The position numbers and the translations under genes were made by a program. From the NCBI RefSeq assembly GCF_058153355.1, contig NZ_CM177019.1: 64,000 nucleotides of DNA; one strand, written 5' to 3'. The notes under the pieces were generated by a model. That model ran no database searches and had not been told where the DNA came from. It worked only from the letters and a program-made list of their open reading frames with translations. Below, one piece after another: positions 2,424 through 45,808 of the stretch. How positions within the stretch are numbered: position 1 is the stretch's first letter; each line of letters opens with the position of its first letter.

Positions 2424-2498
2424 GTAAGCGTCTTATCAGGACCGTCTGGCAAATTCCCGATGCTTTGGACAAAGTATCCACCACTAAATTAATAGTGG

Positions 2499-2927
2499 GT
2501 GATAAAAATGTCAGATATACAAAAAAATGCCTCTCCGGGAAGGCCTAAAGGGTGCCTGAATTATCCTCCTGAATTCAAACAACGACTCATAGAAGCATCA
2601 TTCCAGCCAGGTGTTTCAATTTCCAGACTGGCCCTGGACAATGGTATTAATGCCAATCTGTTGTTCAAATGGCGTCAGAAATGGCGGCAGGGGAAGATAA
2701 AATTGCCATCATCAGAATCAGGCAGAGAATCTCAGTTAATTCCTGTCACTATTGATGCCCAACTCCCAACTGCTCCGGCTAATGAGCCACTGACCGCAAG
2801 ACCGTCAGTAACACCGGAAATACACAGCATCTCCTGTGAGATTACGTTCAGAAACGGCACCCTTCGGTTGAACGGGGCAGTGAATGAAAATCTGCTGTCC
2901 TTGCTTATACAGGAGCTGAGACGGTGA
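2499..2927 (+). CDS. IS66-family accessory protein TnpA (orf1, 142 aa)
   Basis: First ORF of the element, small helix-turn-helix-like protein; stop overlaps the next ORF start (ATGA). Confidence 0.85.
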   Translation: MIKMSDIQKNASPGRPKGCLNYPPEFKQRLIEASFQPGVSISRLALDNGINANLLFKWRQKWRQGKIKLPSSESGRESQLIPVTIDAQLPTAPANEPLTARPSVTPEIHSISCEITFRNGTLRLNGAVNENLLSLLIQELRR

Positions 2928-3271
2928 TATCTCTCCCTGCAGGTTCGCGTATCTGGCTGGTTGCAGGTATCACCGATATGCGAAATGGCTTTAACGGCCT
3001 GGCCTCAAAAGTTCAGAACGTCCTGAAGGATGACCCGTTCTCCGGGCATCTGTTCATCTTCCGCGGACGCCGGGGTGACCAGATAAAAGTGTTGTGGGCT
3101 GACAGTGACGGACTGTGCCTCTTCACCAGACGCCTGGAGCGGGGCCGCTTCGTCTGGCCGGTCACCCGTGACGGCAAGGTGCACCTTACTCCGGCCCAGT
3201 TATCCATGCTTCTTGAGGGCATCGACTGGAAACACCCGAAACGAACGGAACGCGCTGGCATCCGCATATAA
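2924..3271 (+). CDS. IS66-family TnpB (orf2, 115 aa)
   Basis: Second ORF, translationally coupled to orf1, size and position typical of IS66 orf2. Confidence 0.85.
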   Translation: MISLPAGSRIWLVAGITDMRNGFNGLASKVQNVLKDDPFSGHLFIFRGRRGDQIKVLWADSDGLCLFTRRLERGRFVWPVTRDGKVHLTPAQLSMLLEGIDWKHPKRTERAGIRI

Positions 3272-3290
3272 CCCGTTGTAAAGTGAGGAT

Positions 3291-4862
3291 ATGGACACCT
3301 CACTTGCTCATGAGAATGCCCGCCTGCGGGCACTGTTGCAGACGCAACAGGACACCATCCGCCAGATGGCGAAATACAACCGCCTGCTCTCACAGCGGGT
3401 GGCGGCTTATGCTTCCGAAATCAACCGGCTGAAGGCGCTGGTTGCAAAACTGCAGCGCATGCAGTTCGGTAAAAGCTCAGAAAAACTTCGTGCAAAAACC
3501 GAACGGCAGATACAGGAAGCACAGGAGCGAATCAGCGCTCTTCAGGAAGAAATGGCGGAAACGCTGGGTGAGCAATATGACCCGGTACTGCCATCTCCCC
3601 TGCGCCAGTCTTCAGCCCGTAAACCGTTACCTGCCTCACTTCCCCGTGAAACCCGGGTCATCCGTCCGGAAGAGGAATGCTGCCCGGCCTGTGGTGGCGA
3701 ACTCAGTTCTCTGGGATGTGATGTGTCAGAGCAACTGGAGCTTATCAGCAGCGCCTTTAAGGTTATCGAAACACAACGTCCGAAACTGGCCTGTTGCCGG
3801 TGCGACCATATCGTGCAGGCTCCGGTGCCTTCAAAACCCATTGCACGCAGTTATGCCGGAGCGGGGCTTCTGGCCCATGTTGTCGCTGGAAAATATGCAG
3901 ACCATCTGCCGTTATACCGCCAGTCAGAAATATACCGTCGTCAGGGCGTGGAGCTGAGCCGTGCCACACTGGGGCGCTGGACAGGTGCTGTTGCTGAACT
4001 GCTGGAACCGCTGTATGACATCCTGCGCCAGTATGTGCTGATGCCCGGTAAAGTCCATGCCGATGATATCCCCGTTCCGGTCCAGGAGCCGGGCAGCGGT
4101 AAAACAAGGACTGCCCGGCTGTGGGTCTACGTTCGTGATGACCGTAACGCCGGTTCGGAAATGCCTCCGGCGGTCTGGTTCGCGTACAGCCCGGACCGGA
4201 AAGGTATCCATCCACAGAATCATCTGGCCGGTTACAGCGGAGTGCTTCAGGCCGATGCTTACGGTGGTTACCGGGCGTTGTACGAATCCGGCAGAATAAC
4301 GGAAGCCGCATGTATGGCTCATGCCCGGAGAAAAATCCACGATGTGCATGCAAGAGTGCCCACCGACATCACCACGGAAGCCCTGCAGCGTATCGGTGAA
4401 CTGTATGCCATCGAGGCAGAGGTCCGGGGCTGTTCAGCAGAACAGCGTCTGGCGGCAAGAAAAGCCAGAGCCGCGCCACTGATGCAGTCACTGTATGACT
4501 GGATACAGCAACAGATGAAAACACTGTCGCGTCACTCGGACACGGCAAAAGCGTTCGCATACCTGCTGAAACAGTGGGATGCACTGAACGTGTACTGCAG
4601 TAATGGCTGGGTGGAAATCGACAACAACATCGCAGAGAACGCCTTACGGGGAGTGGCCGTAGGCCGGAAAAACTGGCTCTTCGCGGGTTCTGACAGCGGT
4701 GGTGAACATGCTGCGGTGTTGTACTCGCTGATCGGCACATGCCGTCTGAACAATGTGGAGCCAGAAAAGTGGCTGCGTTACGTCATTGAACATATCCAGG
4801 ACTGGCCGGCAAACCGGGTACGCGATCTGTTGCCCTGGAAAGTTGATCTGAGCTCTCAGTAA
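3291..4862 (+). CDS. IS66-family transposase TnpC (orf3, 523 aa)
   Basis: Long ORF with N-terminal coiled-coil/leucine-zipper-like segment, CxxC...CxxC zinc-finger-like motif and DDE-type core, typical of IS66 transposases. Confidence 0.88.
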
Positions 4863-4892
4863 ATATCAATACGGTTCTGGCGAGCCGCTTAC

Positions 4893-6213: not shown

Positions 6214-7845
6214 ATGAGACATTCATTGCCCTACCGCATATTACGCAAACGTCCGATGAAATTGAGTACCACTGTGATCTTAATGGTCAGCGCGGTACTG
6301 TTCTCGGTGCTATTGGTGGTGCATCTGATTTACTTCTCGCAAATCAGTGATATGACGCGAGACGGGCTAGCCAACAAGGCACTGGCAGTGGCGCGTACTC
6401 TCGCCGACTCGCCGGAAATCCGTCAGGGCTTGCAGAAAAAACCGCAGGAGAGCGGCATCCAGGCCATCGCGGAAGCCGTGCGCAAACGCAACGATCTGCT
6501 GTTTATTGTCGTTACCGATATGCAAAGTCTTCGCTACTCGCATCCTGAAGCCCAGCGTATTGGTCAGCCATTTAAAGGTGATGACATCCTTAAAGCGCTG
6601 AATGGCGAAGAAAATGTCGCTATCAATCGCGGTTTTCTGGCGCAGGCTTTACGCGTATTTACCCCCATCTACGATGAAAATCATAAACAAATTGGCGTGG
6701 TGGCGATCGGCCTTGAGTTAAGTCGCGTGACCCAACAGATCAATGACAGTCGCTGGAGCATCATCTGGTCGGTATTATTTGGCATGCTGGTCGGGCTGAT
6801 TGGCACCTGCATTCTGGTTAAGGTACTGAAAAAAATCCTTTTCGGCCTGGAACCCTACGAAATCTCCACGCTGTTTGAGCAACGCCAGGCCATGTTGCAG
6901 TCGATCAAAGAAGGCGTCGTTGCCGTGGACGATCGCGGCGAGGTCACGCTGATCAACGATGCCGCACAAGAATTGCTGAATTACCGTAAGTCGCAGGACG
7001 ATGAGAAACTGTCGACGCTAAGCCACTCGTGGTCACAGGTGGTAGATGTCTCGGAAGTGTTACGCGACGGTACCCCGCGGCGCGACGAAGAGATTACGAT
7101 TAAAGACCGGCTATTACTGATCAACACCGTTCCGGTGCGCAGTAATGGCGTTATCATCGGTGCCATTTCAACCTTCAGGGACAAAACTGAAGTACGTAAA
7201 CTGATGCAGCGACTCGATGGTCTGGTCAACTATGCTGACGCACTTCGTGAACGATCCCACGAATTTATGAATAAATTGCATGTGATTCTCGGATTATTGC
7301 ATCTGAAGAGTTATAAGCAGTTGGAAGATTACATTCTCAAAACAGCCAATAACTATCAGGAAGAGATTGGCTCTCTGCTGGGTAAGATCAAATCTCCGGT
7401 TATCGCTGGTTTTTTAATCAGCAAGATTAACCGCGCGACCGATTTAGGCCATACGCTGATTTTAAACAGTGAAAGCCAGCTGCCAGACAGCGGCAGTGAG
7501 GACCAGGTCGCGACGCTGATTACCACGTTGGGAAATCTGATAGAAAACGCGCTGGAAGCATTAGGGCCGGAACCCGGTGGCGAAATTAGCGTAACATTGC
7601 ACTACCGTCACGGCTGGCTGCACTGTGAAGTTAACGATGATGGACCGGGGATCGCACCCGACAAAATCGATCACATTTTTGACAAAGGTGTCTCGACAAA
7701 AGGAAGCGAGCGAGGCGTCGGTTTAGCACTTGTCAAACAACAGGTAGAAAATCTCGGCGGCAACATCGCCGTGGAATCGGAACCCGGGATTTTCACACAA
7801 TTTTTTGTCCAGATACCCTGGGACGGGGAGAGGTCGAACAGATGA
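6214..7845 (+). CDS. dcuS: C4-dicarboxylate sensor histidine kinase DcuS (543 aa)
   Basis: Two transmembrane segments flanking a periplasmic sensor domain, PAS and HATPase regions; recognised sequence. Confidence 0.93.
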   Translation: MRHSLPYRILRKRPMKLSTTVILMVSAVLFSVLLVVHLIYFSQISDMTRDGLANKALAVARTLADSPEIRQGLQKKPQESGIQAIAEAVRKRNDLLFIVVTDMQSLRYSHPEAQRIGQPFKGDDILKALNGEENVAINRGFLAQALRVFTPIYDENHKQIGVVAIGLELSRVTQQINDSRWSIIWSVLFGMLVGLIGTCILVKVLKKILFGLEPYEISTLFEQRQAMLQSIKEGVVAVDDRGEVTLINDAAQELLNYRKSQDDEKLSTLSHSWSQVVDVSEVLRDGTPRRDEEITIKDRLLLINTVPVRSNGVIIGAISTFRDKTEVRKLMQRLDGLVNYADALRERSHEFMNKLHVILGLLHLKSYKQLEDYILKTANNYQEEIGSLLGKIKSPVIAGFLISKINRATDLGHTLILNSESQLPDSGSEDQVATLITTLGNLIENALEALGPEPGGEISVTLHYRHGWLHCEVNDDGPGIAPDKIDHIFDKGVSTKGSERGVGLALVKQQVENLGGNIAVESEPGIFTQFFVQIPWDGERSNR

Positions 7846-26871: not shown

Positions 26872-29096
26872 TATCGTTCTGCCGTGAAAAGTGTTTGAAT
26901 ATCATCGCGTAACAGCTGAGCGTCGATGTAAATCCAGCCATGAGTCATCACAGTCTGCTGCAATTGCTGCTGCATCAGCCTGACCACCGATTCATTTTGT
27001 TGACGCAGAGCCAGACTTTCGCGTAAACGCGTCTGTAATTCCGTCAAACATGAAGCGAACTCAGCGAAAAAAGTATTCATGCCTGCCGTAACAGATTCAT
27101 CGACCTGCTCTGCCAGAACTTTAGCCATTTGTTGGCAATAAAGATCGACTTCTGCGCTTAATGCTCGTTGCAACGCACTGTAATCAACCGTCTCTATCGG
27201 GGATTTCTCATTTCCCCGTCCCCAGTCGGGCTGATTCAACCAGCGCGAAAAAGTCTCACGCACAACGCCTAAACGCGTGCTCTGCTCGTCCATTGCGTCC
27301 TGGCGCGAAATGACTTCACTGAACAGCTGGCGAGTGTTGAAGTGGGGAACTGCGCCGTGAAAAACAGGAAAATGAAACCCAGGACGAAACCCTGACTCGC
27401 TCAATTCCATTTTGACTTGTTGCTCAATGGGCCGAATAACATCGGTTAACACCCGGCAAAGAGTGGATTCAAGCTCGGCAAAACGCAGCGTAAAGTCGCG
27501 ACTGATGGTGTTCTGCGCCGTCTGTAACAGTGTCTCACAGCAGGTACGAATCTCGCTTAATGACCCCGAATCATCCTGAAACAACGCGGCTAACTGGGCA
27601 TTCACCGCATCTTGCTGTTGACGCAGAAAGAGGTTGGCGGAGGTCAGGGCCAGCTCGATTTCATGTTTAATCTCGCCGCTCACCTGAGCCTGATTGAGTT
27701 GAAATAGCTGCAAACTTTCTTCGATCTGGTGGATATTTTGCCGCAATTGTTCACAAGCGACGTTTAACCCGTGCGCACGAAAATCCAGGTATTCCCGCGC
27801 CTGCTGCGCGTAATTCAACAGTTTATGCGCGGCAGATCGCAGAGCATACAACGAGGCGTTAGCGTAAGCGGCATGAAGCAACGCCTGAATTGGCTGGGCG
27901 AACAGCGAATCTTCCCACAACTGATCGGCAGCATGACGAATATGTTCGAGGTCCGCCAGGTCGGCATGACGCCAGCGCCTGCCGAGCGCGGCATGGGCAA
28001 AATCCTCCACCCAGCGTTGTTGCTCTGGCGCGGGTAACTTACCGTTGTTGGCTAACTCATTACGCGCCCGATTCGCCAGGTAGCCCCACATCGACGACAC
28101 TGGAAATATCTGCTGTGGCGTAATACAGCCTTTCATCAGCGTCCCGGAAATCAGTGCCCGCACCTGGTCGGCGTCGTCACTGTTACGATCCTGTTGATCG
28201 AACTTATTGACCAGCACATACAGCGGCACCGATTGCCCCACCGCCAAAATCGCCTCACGGACCTCTTCATCGGAGATCGATTTCAGTTGCGTATAATCCA
28301 GCACCGCCAGTACCGCCGAGGCGCGAGCCAGCTGCTGGTTAAGCATTTTTTGCAGATGCGGTTGCCCGGCTTCATTTGGCCCAGGGGTATCCAGTAACGT
28401 CAACTGACCGGGATAACTCTCCAGCCCCGCCAGATGGACAAACTCCACTTCAATCACGGGAATATGCTCAATGGCGGCGTAAGCAGAAAAAGGAAAATCG
28501 ACGTCCAGCGCCTTCGCCAGTCGCACCAAATCATTCAAACTTTTCAGACAATGAAAAATAGGCTGGGCACCCAGATAATATTTTTCGAAAGCGACGCCAT
28601 TTTCGATCCGCAGCATAAGCGCACGCATATCTTTATCTATTTCCAGCACATCGGTCAGATGCTTAATATCGCAGTCACGCAGGCGCTGTTGTAATTGTTG
28701 AATTAAACAGTCGATTGGCGCGACATGTGAAAAATGCAGTACCGGTTCTTTTTGCCCGGGCGTATGGCGAATAAGCGTCGGCAGCGCAGTCATTGGGCGA
28801 TTGCGATTAGGCAGAACCTCCGTACCAACAATGGCATTAATGGTGGTTGATTTCCCTGCTTTCATAGTACCGACAATCGCCAGCACCATTTCCAGTCGGG
28901 AAATTTTACGCAACTCATTATTCAGCATCGCGTGACGTTCGGCGATATTAGGCTGACTCCAGGGTAAAGCCAGTTGTGGCGCATCGTCTCCGGGTACAGA
29001 GAGAGGCATTTTTTCCAGTAACTGCAACTGTTGGCGAGAAAGCTGTAACAGGCGTTCAGCCTCCTGACTTAACTCATACAGGGTCTGTGTGTACAT
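26868..29096 (-). CDS. crfC: Dynamin-like GTPase CrfC (YjdA), 742 aa
   Basis: N-terminal P-loop GTPase motif (GTMKAGKST), long coiled-coil C-terminal region; recognised sequence. Confidence 0.9.
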   Translation of the reverse strand: MYTQTLYELSQEAERLLQLSRQQLQLLEKMPLSVPGDDAPQLALPWSQPNIAERHAMLNNELRKISRLEMVLAIVGTMKAGKSTTINAIVGTEVLPNRNRPMTALPTLIRHTPGQKEPVLHFSHVAPIDCLIQQLQQRLRDCDIKHLTDVLEIDKDMRALMLRIENGVAFEKYYLGAQPIFHCLKSLNDLVRLAKALDVDFPFSAYAAIEHIPVIEVEFVHLAGLESYPGQLTLLDTPGPNEAGQPHLQKMLNQQLARASAVLAVLDYTQLKSISDEEVREAILAVGQSVPLYVLVNKFDQQDRNSDDADQVRALISGTLMKGCITPQQIFPVSSMWGYLANRARNELANNGKLPAPEQQRWVEDFAHAALGRRWRHADLADLEHIRHAADQLWEDSLFAQPIQALLHAAYANASLYALRSAAHKLLNYAQQAREYLDFRAHGLNVACEQLRQNIHQIEESLQLFQLNQAQVSGEIKHEIELALTSANLFLRQQQDAVNAQLAALFQDDSGSLSEIRTCCETLLQTAQNTISRDFTLRFAELESTLCRVLTDVIRPIEQQVKMELSESGFRPGFHFPVFHGAVPHFNTRQLFSEVISRQDAMDEQSTRLGVVRETFSRWLNQPDWGRGNEKSPIETVDYSALQRALSAEVDLYCQQMAKVLAEQVDESVTAGMNTFFAEFASCLTELQTRLRESLALRQQNESVVRLMQQQLQQTVMTHGWIYIDAQLLRDDIQTLFTAERY

Positions 29097-29497
29097 AGAA
29101 AATTTTTCCTTAAAGCAAATTTTATTACTTTTATTTAGCCAGATTGTTTTTGAGTTCTGTTTTCGGCTTTTATAATTACTGCAAGAAATAATTTTATATT
29201 TAGAGTGTTGTTTTTTATTAGAATAAATAACGTCTTCCGATACGTTTAAAATGTCAGAAAGATAAAAATATCATTTGAATTAAAAAAAGAACAAGTAGAG
29301 CATTAACCTTATCTTAAATAATAAATGGAGGCAAAAAGATTATTTTCTTTTTGCGTTTCCTTTCAAATGAAAACGATCGTCGTCTAAAATCAGCAGTACC
29401 CCCGACAAACTCAGGGATTTTGTGTATAATTGCGGCCTTTTTCGGCAATCTGCCGTTTTTTGGCGCTTTTGCCCTGCTGACTTTTGAGGAAATCCAC

Positions 29498-29833
29498 ATG
29501 TCATTACCACACTGCCCAAAATGCAACTCCGAATACACCTACGAAGATAACGGCATGTACATCTGCCCGGAATGTGCCTACGAATGGAACGACGCAGAAC
29601 CTGCACAGGAAAGCGATGAACTGATCGTTAAAGATGCAAACGGCAATCTTCTGGCTGATGGCGACAGCGTTACCATCATTAAAGATCTGAAGGTGAAAGG
29701 TAGCTCTTCGATGCTGAAGATCGGTACCAAAGTGAAAAACATTCGCCTGGTTGAAGGCGACCACAACATCGATTGCAAAATCGACGGTTTTGGTCCGATG
29801 AAACTGAAATCTGAGTTTGTGAAAAAGAACTGA
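29498..29833 (+). CDS. yjdM: Zn-ribbon protein YjdM (PhnA), 111 aa
   Basis: Translation [30 protein letters not shown]...; CxxC...CxxC motifs. Confidence 0.9.
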
Positions 29834-29867: not shown

Positions 29868-31170
<1,303 letters not shown>

Positions 31171-31200
31171 CATGCCTGCAATCTGGGAAACCGGGGTAGA

Positions 31201-31289
<89 letters not shown>

Positions 31290-42854: not shown

Positions 42855-43184
42855 TCACCGCCCATACTCATCTTCCATTCTCCGCTCTTCATCTTCTAGC
42901 TGCCGACGCTCCTGATCCAGCTGGCGCTGGCGATCGTCCAGCTGCCTGCGGCGATCTTCAAACTGGCGGCGGCGATCGTCATATTGTCTGCGCCGATCGT
43001 CGTTCACTTCACGCTGCCAGCCGTCGTCGCGCGAATCTTCATAGTCTCGCCCACGGTCAGGGTTATAAGCATCGTTAATCGCCTGCTGAATATTGCCAAT
43101 GGTGTCGTCGATAATATCGGCCTGGGCCGGAACGGTGGACAGCGTGAGCAGGGTGAATAAAAGAAATAGCGGAAAACGTTTCAT
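42855..43184 (-). CDS. yjdP: Secreted Arg/Asp/Glu-rich repeat protein YjdP (109 aa)
   Basis: Signal peptide followed by low-complexity DDRRRQ.. repeats. Confidence 0.85.
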   Translation of the reverse strand: MKRFPLFLLFTLLTLSTVPAQADIIDDTIGNIQQAINDAYNPDRGRDYEDSRDDGWQREVNDDRRRQYDDRRRQFEDRRRQLDDRQRQLDQERRQLEDEERRMEDEYGR

Positions 43185-43252
43185 TAGCCAACCTCAAAAA
43201 GAAACTCTATCCACATTAGTCATTACTCATCCATGCAAGTAGTGGATGAATC

Positions 43253-43570
43253 TCAATTTTTCCGCTGCTCTATTGCCGTAATCGCCTCCACGCGTTGTTG
43301 ATGACGACCGCCTTCGTACTGCGCGCCCAGCCACGCATCCACAATCATTTTTGCCAGTTCGAGGCCAACCACTCGTGAACCAAAAGCCAGTGCAACTTCA
43401 CTGGCGTAATGCGGATAATCAGTGCGCTCTGACGACCTGGTTTCTTTATCAATCCCCTCACTCATTGACCATGAATAAAAGGCTGGCACAGCAACGCAGA
43501 ATCCTGCGGTGCCAGCGACATGACCGCCCATTGCTCCGGTACGTTTTTTAATAAGAAATACCGGTTGCAT
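43253..43570 (-). pseudogene. rpiB: rpiB-derived remnant: C-terminal region of ribose-5-phosphate isomerase B retained, internal segment missing, N-terminal part unrecognisable
   Basis: ORF contains ...SSERTDYPHYAS.VALA then FGSRVVGLELAKMIVDAWLGAQYEGGRHQQRVEAITAIEQR.N, which matches RpiB as I recall it, but about 50 central residues including the catalytic Cys region are absent. Confidence 0.55.
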
Positions 43571-43822
43571 TGATTAATTGTGCTCAGTATTTGCCGAAGT
43601 ACAATATATATAATAAATATATAAAACACCTCATATTATTTACAGAGATAATAAATTCGCGTACTTTTCCCTCTTCAGCACAAATGCCTAATAAAATGGC
43701 TCGTTCCGCTCACACTTCCACTTATTAAAATCGCAATTTCCCAATTATGATAACGCCAGCTTTAAATGACGTATTTTGCATGGATTACATATTTACGACA
43801 CAAATGATAAATGGAGATTTAT

Positions 43823-45808
43823 ATGAATAACTCTCGGTTATTCCGTTTGAGCAGGATTGTTATTGCGTTAACTGCCGCCAGCGGCATGATGGTAAATACC
43901 GCTCACGCAACAGATGAAGCGAAAGCCGCCACTCAATATACCCAACAGGTTAATCAGAATTACGCCAAATCATTACCGTTTAGCGATCGTCAGGATTTTG
44001 ACGATGCCCAGCGTGGATTTATCGCTCCGCTGCTGGATGAAGGTATTCTGCGTGATGCGAATGGCAAAATTTACTACCGCGCGGATGATTACAAATTTGA
44101 TATTAATGCCGCTGCGCCGGAAACCGTAAACCCCAGCCTGTGGCGTCAGTCGCAGATCAACGGCATTTCTGGCCTGTTCAAAGTCACCGATAAAATGTAT
44201 CAGGTGCGCGGCCAGGATATCTCTAACATTACATTCGTTGAGGGCGAGAAAGGCATTATTGTTATCGACCCACTGGTGACGCCGCCTGCCGCAAAAGCCG
44301 CACTTGACCTTTACTTCCAGCATCGTCCGCAAAAACCGATTGTTGCTGTTATTTACACCCACAGCCACGCCGACCATTATGGCGGTGTGAAAGGCATTAT
44401 CTCTGAAGCGGATGTTAAATCTGGCAAAGTGCAGGTGATCGCTCCGGCAGGCTTTATGGACGAAGCCATCAGCGAAAACGTGCTGGCGGGTAACATCATG
44501 AGCCGCCGTGCACTTTACTCTTACGGCCTGTTACTGCCGCACAACGCGCAAGGTAACGTGGGCAATGGGCTTGGCGTGACGCTGGCAACGGGCGACCCGA
44601 GCATTATTGCGCCAACCAAAACGATTGTCAGAACTGGCGAGAAGATGGTCATCGACGGTCTGGAGTTTGACTTTCTGATGACTCCGGGTAGCGAAGCTCC
44701 AGCCGAAATGCACTTCTATATTCCGGCCCTGAAAGCCCTGTGTACCGCCGAAAACGCCACGCATACCTTGCACAACTTCTACACCCTGCGCGGCGCGAAA
44801 ACCCGCGACACCAGCAAGTGGACAGAGTATCTGAACGAAACGCTGGATATGTGGGGTAACGACGCGGAAGTACTGTTTATGCCGCACACCTGGCCGGTCT
44901 GGGGCAATAAGCATATCAATGATTATATTGGTAAATATCGCGATACTATCAAATACATTCACGACCAGACCCTGCACCTGGCGAACCAGGGTTACACCAT
45001 GAATGAAATCGGCGACATGATTAAGCTGCCACCTGCGCTTGCCAATAACTGGGCCAGCCGCGGCTATTACGGTTCTGTTAGCCACAACGCCCGTGCAGTG
45101 TATAACTTCTATCTCGGCTATTATGACGGCAATCCAGCTAACCTACATCCGTACGGTCAGGTGGAGATGGGCAAACGTTACGTGAAAGCGCTGGGCGGTT
45201 CCGCCCGTGTCATCAACCTGGCGCAAGAAGCGAACAAGCAAGGGGATTACCGCTGGTCAGCAGAGTTGCTGAAACAGGTGATTGCTGCCAATCCGGGTGA
45301 CCAGGTGGCGAAGAATCTGCAAGCGAATAACTTTGAGCAGTTGGGTTATCAGGCCGAGTCCGCCACCTGGCGCGGTTTCTACCTGACCGGCGCAAAAGAG
45401 CTGCGCGAAGGGGTGCATAAGTTCAGCCACGGCACCACCGGTTCTCCGGACACCCTTCGCGGGATGTCGGTCGAAATGCTGTTCGACTTTATGGCCGTTC
45501 GCCTCGATAGCGCGAAAGCCGCAGGTAAGAATATCAGCCTGAACTTCAATATGAGCAACGGCGATAACCTCAACCTGACGCTGAACGATAGCGTGCTTAA
45601 CTACCGTAAAACGCTGCAACCTGAAGCCAACGCCTCTTTCTACATCAGCCGTGAAGATCTGCACGCCGTGCTGACCGGACAAGCCAAAATGGCCGATCTG
45701 GTGAAAACGAAGAAAGCCAAAATTATTGGCAATGGCGCGAAACTGGAAGAAATTATTGCCTGTCTGGATAATTTTGATTTGTGGGTGAATATCGTAACCC
45801 CAAATTAA
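43823..45808 (+). CDS. yjcS: Alkyl/aryl-sulfatase YjcS (661 aa; metallo-beta-lactamase plus SCP2-like domains)
   Basis: Signal peptide [29 protein letters not shown]; HSHADH motif. Confidence 0.9.

Follow-up and report, generated by a model that had tools for sequence, protein, structure and literature searches.

Gene content and base composition of the locus

The window, meaning the whole 64-kb stretch of DNA that was analysed, carried an AT-rich island directly upstream of yjcS, the gene of a linear primary alkyl sulfatase. The left side of the island was bordered by a short open reading frame (ORF) with partial similarity to rpiB. The following features were assigned from left to right:

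42855–43184, minus strand: yjdP, left anchor of the variable yjdP–yjcS interval, named DDRRRQL repeat protein YjdP in the annotations of K-12 and of the closest genome
43253–43570, minus strand: ORF of 105 amino acids, annotated by PGAP as 'RpiB/LacA/LacB family sugar-phosphate isomerase', a chimeric pseudogene ORF
43253–43390, minus strand: rpiB 3′ fragment, approximately the last 45 codons and the stop codon, matching Pfam LacAB_rpiB, with DNA 97–98% identical to K-12 rpiB
43385–43390, no strand: in-frame internal rpiB deletion of approximately 150 bp between two AGCCAG direct repeats
43391–43460, minus strand: rpiB middle fragment (approximately K-12 codons 29–53), unusually diverged
43461–43468 (about 43460–43468), no strand: true als deletion junction, between the end of rpiB homology and the start of alsK-tail homology
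43469–43520, plus strand: remnant of the final codons of alsK up to the TGA stop, then a stem-loop (stem 43482–43516), aligned to K-12 over 52 nt without gaps
43521–43598, no strand: scar-specific filler of 78 bp, without significant similarity to the als region of K-12
43571–43822: AT-rich island, limited on the left by the start codon of the minus-strand 105-aa ORF and on the right by the base before the yjcS ATG
43599–43674, no strand: distal island, 76 bp (76–78 bp), 23.7% GC, holding a 24-nt A/T-only run, allele linked to the upstream state
43675–43822, plus strand: proximal island, 148 bp, putative yjcS regulatory region and 5′ leader, 34.5% GC, conserved
43823–45808, plus strand: yjcS, linear primary alkyl sulfatase, with Pfam Lactamase_B, Alkyl_sulf_dimr and Alkyl_sulf_C, named yjcS in all E. 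coli hits

The island comprised 252 bp with 31.3% GC, compared to a mean of 52.7% for the window. Just 0.5% of all 252-bp windows in the 64 kb were as low in GC. The true onset of low GC was located at approximately 43540, left of the start of the island, and the low-GC stretch consisted of two parts, the distal and the proximal island, with the GC contents given above. The sequence AATATATATAATAAATATATAAAA at 43603–43626 was, with 24 nt, the longest A/T-only run within the 64 kb, and it included the only (TA)4 of the window. The very low GC content and long A/T runs described in the sequence-only reading of this DNA were thus confirmed, as was their location upstream of yjcS, whose start codon at 43823 is annotated at the same position in the closest genome and is preceded by GGAG at 43813–43816. 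Eleven separate troughs of 36% GC or less were present in the window, among them the yjcS–ytcA spacer with 32.9%. The composition of the island is therefore far from that of the bulk sequence, yet not unusual among intergenic DNA of E. coli.

The lowest GC content of the whole window was observed at 28972–29513, with a minimum of 22.6% at about 29095. Based on colinearity with the closest genome, this stretch falls within the crfC coding region and not in a spacer. Insertions relative to the closest genome were also detected. An IS66-family element at 2424–4892 was inserted between lysS and ghoT and comprised TnpA-like, TnpB-like and transposase-like ORFs at 2499–2927, 2924–3271 and 3291–4862, respectively. 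Its flanks overlapped by 8 bp, an apparent target-site duplication. A 1.28-kb insertion at 29949–31226 was located between crfC and yjdM and held an IS110-family transposase ORF (30141–31121).

A scar of the als cluster left of the island

In E. coli K-12 MG1655, the order of the locus is phnP, yjdP, rpiB, alsR-alsB-alsA-alsC-alsE-alsK, a spacer of 272 bp and yjcS. Approximately 6.5 kb of this arrangement was missing from the window, comprising the 5′ end of rpiB, alsR, alsB, alsA, alsC, alsE and nearly all of alsK. The comparison with K-12 thereby bore out the earlier statement that the K-12 als genes are absent at this locus, and the Pfam match and DNA identity of the 3′ fragment agreed with the description of the ORF beside the island as an rpiB remnant. 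The same reading had placed the deletion junction at the island, which did not hold. Homology to rpiB stopped at approximately 43459 (position 1068 of the K-12 reverse complement) and homology to the alsK tail began at 43469 (position 7626). The stretch 43469–43520 aligned to the K-12 sequence just after alsK with a local alignment score of 30, compared to a mean of 12.7 and a maximum of 16 for shuffled sequences. Because rpiB homology ends and alsK-tail homology starts here, the junction lies at about 43460–43468, some 110 bp left of the island and within the 'rpiB remnant' ORF itself. The fragments of rpiB (43253–43460) and the alsK tail with its stem-loop flank this junction in K-12 order and orientation, as expected for a scar of the als cluster.

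The stem-loop after the alsK stop folded at −22.1 kcal/mol (z −3.6), and its K-12 counterpart at −21.1 kcal/mol (z −4.2). One base pair of the stem was changed on both sides relative to K-12 (T-A to C-G), an anecdotal observation. As a Rho-independent terminator, the stem at 43482–43516 lacked the U-tract and was followed by CGACAUGACC. The terminator consensus scan did not report it either; the sole terminator-like site of that scan was located on the minus strand inside the rpiB fragment. An Rfam scan of both strands of 43000–44200 gave no match at an E-value of 1 or below.

The filler that follows the stem-loop did not match the als region of K-12 significantly in either orientation. A second copy was not found in any E. 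coli genome; the filler was present at one place per genome and in scar-type genomes only (1574 of 5426). Its right 39 bp was common to the variant in strain HH97, and its right part had a marginal similarity to the lmvR–yjcS spacer of genomes with the OI167 island, with 16 of 300 shuffles scoring as well.

Parts of the scar and the distal island were more diverged from K-12 than their surroundings. Identity was approximately 89% for the rpiB middle fragment, 75–79% for the alsK tail and 77% for the distal island, compared to 97–98% in the flanks, including yjdP with 97–98%. The rpiB middle fragment was 89–90% identical to rpiB of K-12, CFT073 and E. whittamii and 94–100% identical among scar-type genomes. 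Either an old haplotype that the indel has protected from recombination or an origin in a divergent als cluster would account for these differences.

The 105-aa ORF combined sequences of different origin. In the alignment with K-12, position 839 of the reverse complement was joined to about position 989; the hexamer AGCCAG was present at both of these K-12 ends and once in the window. This internal in-frame deletion removed approximately 50 amino acids of rpiB from the ORF, which presumably include the region of the catalytic Cys66 of E. coli RpiB. The family match was limited to residues 61–97, corresponding to profile positions 102–138 of the 138 positions of LacAB_rpiB. Residues 1 to about 37 came from antisense translation of the filler, the alsK tail and the stem-loop. 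The N-terminus (KKRTGAMGGHVAG...) was also considered as a diverged RpiB N-terminus; this candidate was rejected, as the bases align to the K-12 alsK tail and stem-loop. No significant alignment was obtained between 43461–43598 and the 5′ end of rpiB. The annotation of E24377A lists the ORF as a pseudogene that contains an internal stop. Judged by its sequence, the 'RpiB/LacA/LacB' ORF is a chimeric pseudogene ORF whose start codon sets the left edge of the island. This corrects the annotation of an isomerase that is called automatically in approximately 1,570 genomes, and the als junction lies inside this ORF, not in the AT-rich spacer. Every als gene is absent from the scar strains and the rpiB pseudogene alone is kept; these strains are therefore expected to be unable to use D-allose.

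The contiguous scar arrangement was detected in 1559 of 5426 complete E. coli genomes and the scar-specific 151 bp in 1574 of 5426. Examples were E24377A and strains of O111:H8 and O113:H21. A further 410 genomes had the OI167 arrangement, in which a lyxose/mannose island, lmvR...lmvK, abuts yjcS. Nearly all remaining genomes matched yjdP and yjcS at two separate places, and every one of these that was examined was als+. The yjdP–yjcS interval thus has three main states in complete E. coli genomes, als with approximately 63% (inferred from the remainder), scar with 29% and OI167 with 8%, and one right-hand boundary common to all. The interval is already known as a variable locus carrying als or OI167: in EHEC O157:H7, OI167 (lmvR-lmuKAIZYX-lmvK) replaces the allose locus between yjdP and yjcS (PMC10128022). 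The als deletion scar is common and previously unremarked; no specific account of it, or of its distribution among phylogroups, came up in the literature searched.

Individual genomes showed further arrangements. In HH97 (L004, 5715–6270), a different sequence of 42 bp occupied the position of the alsK tail, the stem-loop and the filler's left half, and the flanks of the scar were identical, including the internal rpiB deletion. In W3110 (L001, 8745–10000), an IS5 element truncated the 3′ end of alsK just left of the AT tract. LF4-1 (L005, 6258–7096) had an IS1-bounded deletion from yjdP to ytcA that removed yjcS. In Escherichia sp. MOD1-EC7003 (L008, 8100–9000), just a phnO-like fragment of 132 bp separated yjdN from the yjcS upstream region, and everything from phnC to als was absent there. 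Citrobacter sp. wls619 (L019, 8560–8905) had GGCGAAGTGAAAG at the corresponding position upstream of yjcS, and GGCGAAGTGAAAG adjoins lmvR in OI167-type E. coli.

In Salmonella arizonae and in two genomes of Kluyvera, the distance from the phn/yjdP side to yjcS was at most approximately 340 bp, and als and rpiB were both missing from this interval. Based on this gene order, the als–rpiB block looks like an insertion of the Escherichia lineage that was later lost by the scar haplotype.

Two layers of the yjcS upstream region

The region 43599–44300 was 95.4% identical to K-12, starting 47 bp past the alsK stop and running into yjcS. Its part upstream of the start codon, 43599–43822, corresponded to the yjcS-proximal 225 of the 272 bp of the K-12 alsK–yjcS spacer with approximately 95% identity. 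Altogether, 89% of the island was found in K-12 upstream of yjcS, beside an intact alsRBACEK–rpiB cluster. The sequence upstream of yjcS was also present in CFT073, EC200461, STEC346, E. whittamii and one divergent Escherichia representative, and none of the eight als+ genomes examined lacked it. The sequence-only reading had itself named such an occurrence in K-12, alongside an intact als operon, as what would make the island ordinary, and by that measure it is ordinary. Over the 5′ part of yjcS (43823–44300), the window was 97–98% identical to K-12, CFT073 and OI167 strains and 89–90% identical to the scar-type genomes E24377A and O111:H8.

In an alignment of nine Escherichia sequences, the als, scar, OI167 and MOD1-EC7003 arrangements became mutually alignable within a few bases of 43599–43603, at the AT tract. 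To the right of this point, the island consisted of two layers with different histories of conservation. Within classes, the distal 76 bp was 97–100% identical among scar, 87–96% among als and 100% among OI167 genomes. Between the three classes, identity was 63–78%: the scar-type allele was 75–78% identical to the als type and 70–74% to the OI167 type, and als and OI167 types shared 63–65%. The proximal 148 bp was 96–100% identical across all E. coli regardless of the upstream state, with 89–93% for E. whittamii and 88–91% for L010. Conservation was lower in the first 478 bp of yjcS, where allele classes were approximately 10% apart and unlinked to the upstream state. As these classes do not follow the upstream state, yjcS itself is mosaic by recombination.

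This pattern can be accounted for if upstream cassettes were gained and lost by homologous recombination, with a right crossover inside yjcS or the conserved proximal island. In that case, the distal AT-rich part would belong to the upstream cassette, be it als, OI167 or scar, and not to yjcS. A more far-reaching version is that the distal 76 bp and the 24-nt tract form a cassette-exchange boundary with three ancient state-linked alleles (als, OI167 and scar), which could give yjcS a state-dependent regulation, and that the scar derives from a divergent, possibly foreign, als cluster and not from one like that of K-12. We regard this version as rather improbable.

The upstream regions of yjcS orthologues in other genera were compared with the proximal block. 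The 250 bp upstream of the orthologues in Salmonella arizonae, Citrobacter, Superficieibacter, Pluralibacter and two Kluyvera genomes had 27–39% GC. Motif conservation was assessed in an alignment of nine sequences from six genera, in which the following blocks were invariant or nearly so:

43678–43691: GCACAAAT(A/G)CCTAA
43710–43714: TCACA
43746–43751: −10-like TATGAT (5/6) in Escherichia, Salmonella, Citrobacter, Superficieibacter and Pluralibacter; TAATAT or TAGTAT in Kluyvera
43791–43796: ATT(T/C)AC (ATTTAC in the window)
43813–43816: ribosome-binding site AAAUGGAG with the Shine-Dalgarno sequence GGAG

The motifs GCACAAATNCCTAA and TCACA, the TATGAT-like motif and the ribosome-binding site were thus kept across genera. 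The proximal block most likely holds a weak, activator-dependent promoter of the sigma-70 type for yjcS. Its −10 element would be TATGAT at 43746–43751 and its −35 element TTATTA at approximately 43722–43727, a poor candidate with three of six matches. The predicted leader of yjcS would be about 65 nt long and end in the GGAG ribosome-binding site. The operator-like motifs at 43678–43691 and 43710–43714 would lie upstream of this promoter, at about −44 to −80, a position that suggests its dependence on an activator. A sigma-70 consensus scan of 43100–44000 gave no site with 9 of 12 matches, and a literature search found no transcription start site for yjcS. Given these results and the poor −35 element, phylogenetic footprinting is the basis of the promoter assignment. 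The yjcS promoter is still uncharacterised, and the footprint across genera gives a concrete layout of it for testing.

Regulator binding, alternative readings and known systems

The region 43571–43822 is very probably the native 5′ regulatory region of yjcS with two evolutionary layers; the als scar lies to its left, and the island is not the marker of the deletion. From its conservation, the yjcS upstream region appears to be ordinary and ancestral and not an acquired promoter.

The sequence-only reading had called the composition typical of H-NS-silenced or horizontally acquired promoters. Taken further, the island would be a promoter region of horizontal origin that is silenced by H-NS and that the loss of als produced or uncovered. 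AT-rich composition favours H-NS binding in enterobacteria, and the 69% AT across approximately 280 bp with a 24-nt A/T-only run makes binding of H-NS to the island plausible. The GC content of the island was below the background (31.3% compared to 52.7%), as for an acquired island, and the neighbouring yjdP–yjcS interval is a real hotspot of island exchange. However, the same sequence stands beside an intact als operon in K-12, and the distribution was not patchy, the region being present in all Escherichia arrangements examined and an AT-rich counterpart with shared motifs in five further genera. The orthologues in Salmonella, Kluyvera, Citrobacter, Superficieibacter and Pluralibacter have equally AT-rich upstream regions with shared motifs, which contradicts a horizontal acquisition and argues that the island was neither acquired with nor created by the als deletion. 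The H-NS nucleation motif TCGATAAATT had one match of 8/10 in the island, at its left edge (43570–43579); such matches were common, with 89 in the window. A search of literature texts and supplements found no H-NS ChIP or hns expression data naming yjcS or alsK. An acquired promoter silenced by H-NS is considered a very unlikely explanation of this region.

Binding of other regulators to the yjcS/alsK spacer of K-12 has been reported. NtrC, and the sigma-54 holoenzyme together with NtrC, bound this spacer in vitro in gSELEX and gel-shift experiments, with gSELEX peaks of 43% for NtrC and 41% for the RpoN holoenzyme with NtrC (PMC8743547). The peak position was 4,304,842 (PMC8743547). It would correspond to a site approximately 220 bp upstream of the yjcS ATG, as the glnA/typA entry of the same table indicates U00096.2 coordinates. 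SutR, a regulator of sulfur utilisation, bound the spacer in SELEX (PMC5934670). The island could accordingly be read as a sigma-54 (RpoN)/NtrC promoter or a 'repressive' RpoN site that ties the sulfatase to the nitrogen status. The in-vitro binding speaks for this reading, together with the only TGGCAC, which lies in the stem-loop after alsK both in K-12 and in the window (43485–43490). Against it, the GG-to-GC spacing of this TGGCAC is one base short of the canonical one, and the site is more than 300 bp from the yjcS start codon. The sigma-54 consensus TGGCAC-N5-TTGCW with its GG-N10-GC (−24/−12) element had no match in 43400–43830 at two or fewer mismatches, and the whole window held 39 matches compared to 44.9 expected. 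The text of PMC8743547 describes no in-vivo result for yjcS by name. Altogether, a sigma-54 promoter or site appears quite unlikely. The conserved motifs of the proximal block could also be sites for regulators unrelated to NtrC and SutR.

A third possibility concerns the AT tract at 43603–43626, which may be a hotspot of recombination or integration and set the right-hand limit of the sugar-utilisation cassettes that can be exchanged here (als, OI167 and scar). For four different upstream arrangements, alignability sets in at nearly one point, to within a few bases, and this point coincides with the longest A/T-only run of the window. Next to it, the 76-bp block splits into three deeply diverged allele classes that go with the cassette. 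The IS5 of W3110 and the IS1-bounded deletion of LF4-1 also adjoin this point. On the other hand, there was no sign of an integrase, an att-like repeat or a target-site duplication, and a similar AT tract is present upstream of yjcS in genera without als. A shared boundary would also be expected if the tract were merely an old edge of the yjcS module, and the deep distal alleles show that crossovers occurred to the right of the tract and not within it. We consider such a hotspot unlikely; it is compatible with the explanation as a native yjcS regulatory region.

The native regulatory region remains the preferred explanation, and the island as such is a finding of little consequence, an ordinary yjcS upstream region beside a common als scar at a published variable locus.

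AT-rich regulatory islands of acquired genes that are bound by H-NS are known, for example upstream of bgl or proU. The yjcS island resembles them as a class in its high AT content, its A/T tracts and its position upstream of a poorly expressed gene of the accessory type. It differs from them in that it is short (approximately 280 bp), has been kept with its gene across six genera and has no good nucleation motif. The OI167 locus shares the interval and the right-hand boundary at the AT tract and is a known site of cassette replacement. In contrast to it, the window has neither cassette and only a decayed als scar, and its distal allele was 70–72% identical to the OI167-linked allele. The closest likeness was to the alsK–yjcS spacer of K-12 (U00096.3, 4,306,598–4,306,869), to which 43599–43822 was approximately 95% identical as a whole and 98% identical in the proximal 148 bp. 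The alsK stop and stem-loop of K-12 directly adjoin the AT tract, whereas in the window alsK is gone and the 78-bp filler lies between. The alsK stop and stem-loop of the window were approximately 21–25% diverged from their K-12 counterpart, and the first 76 bp (43599–43674) was just 77% identical to the K-12 spacer. The ribosome-binding site, the start codon and the conserved motifs are shared by the K-12 spacer and the window.
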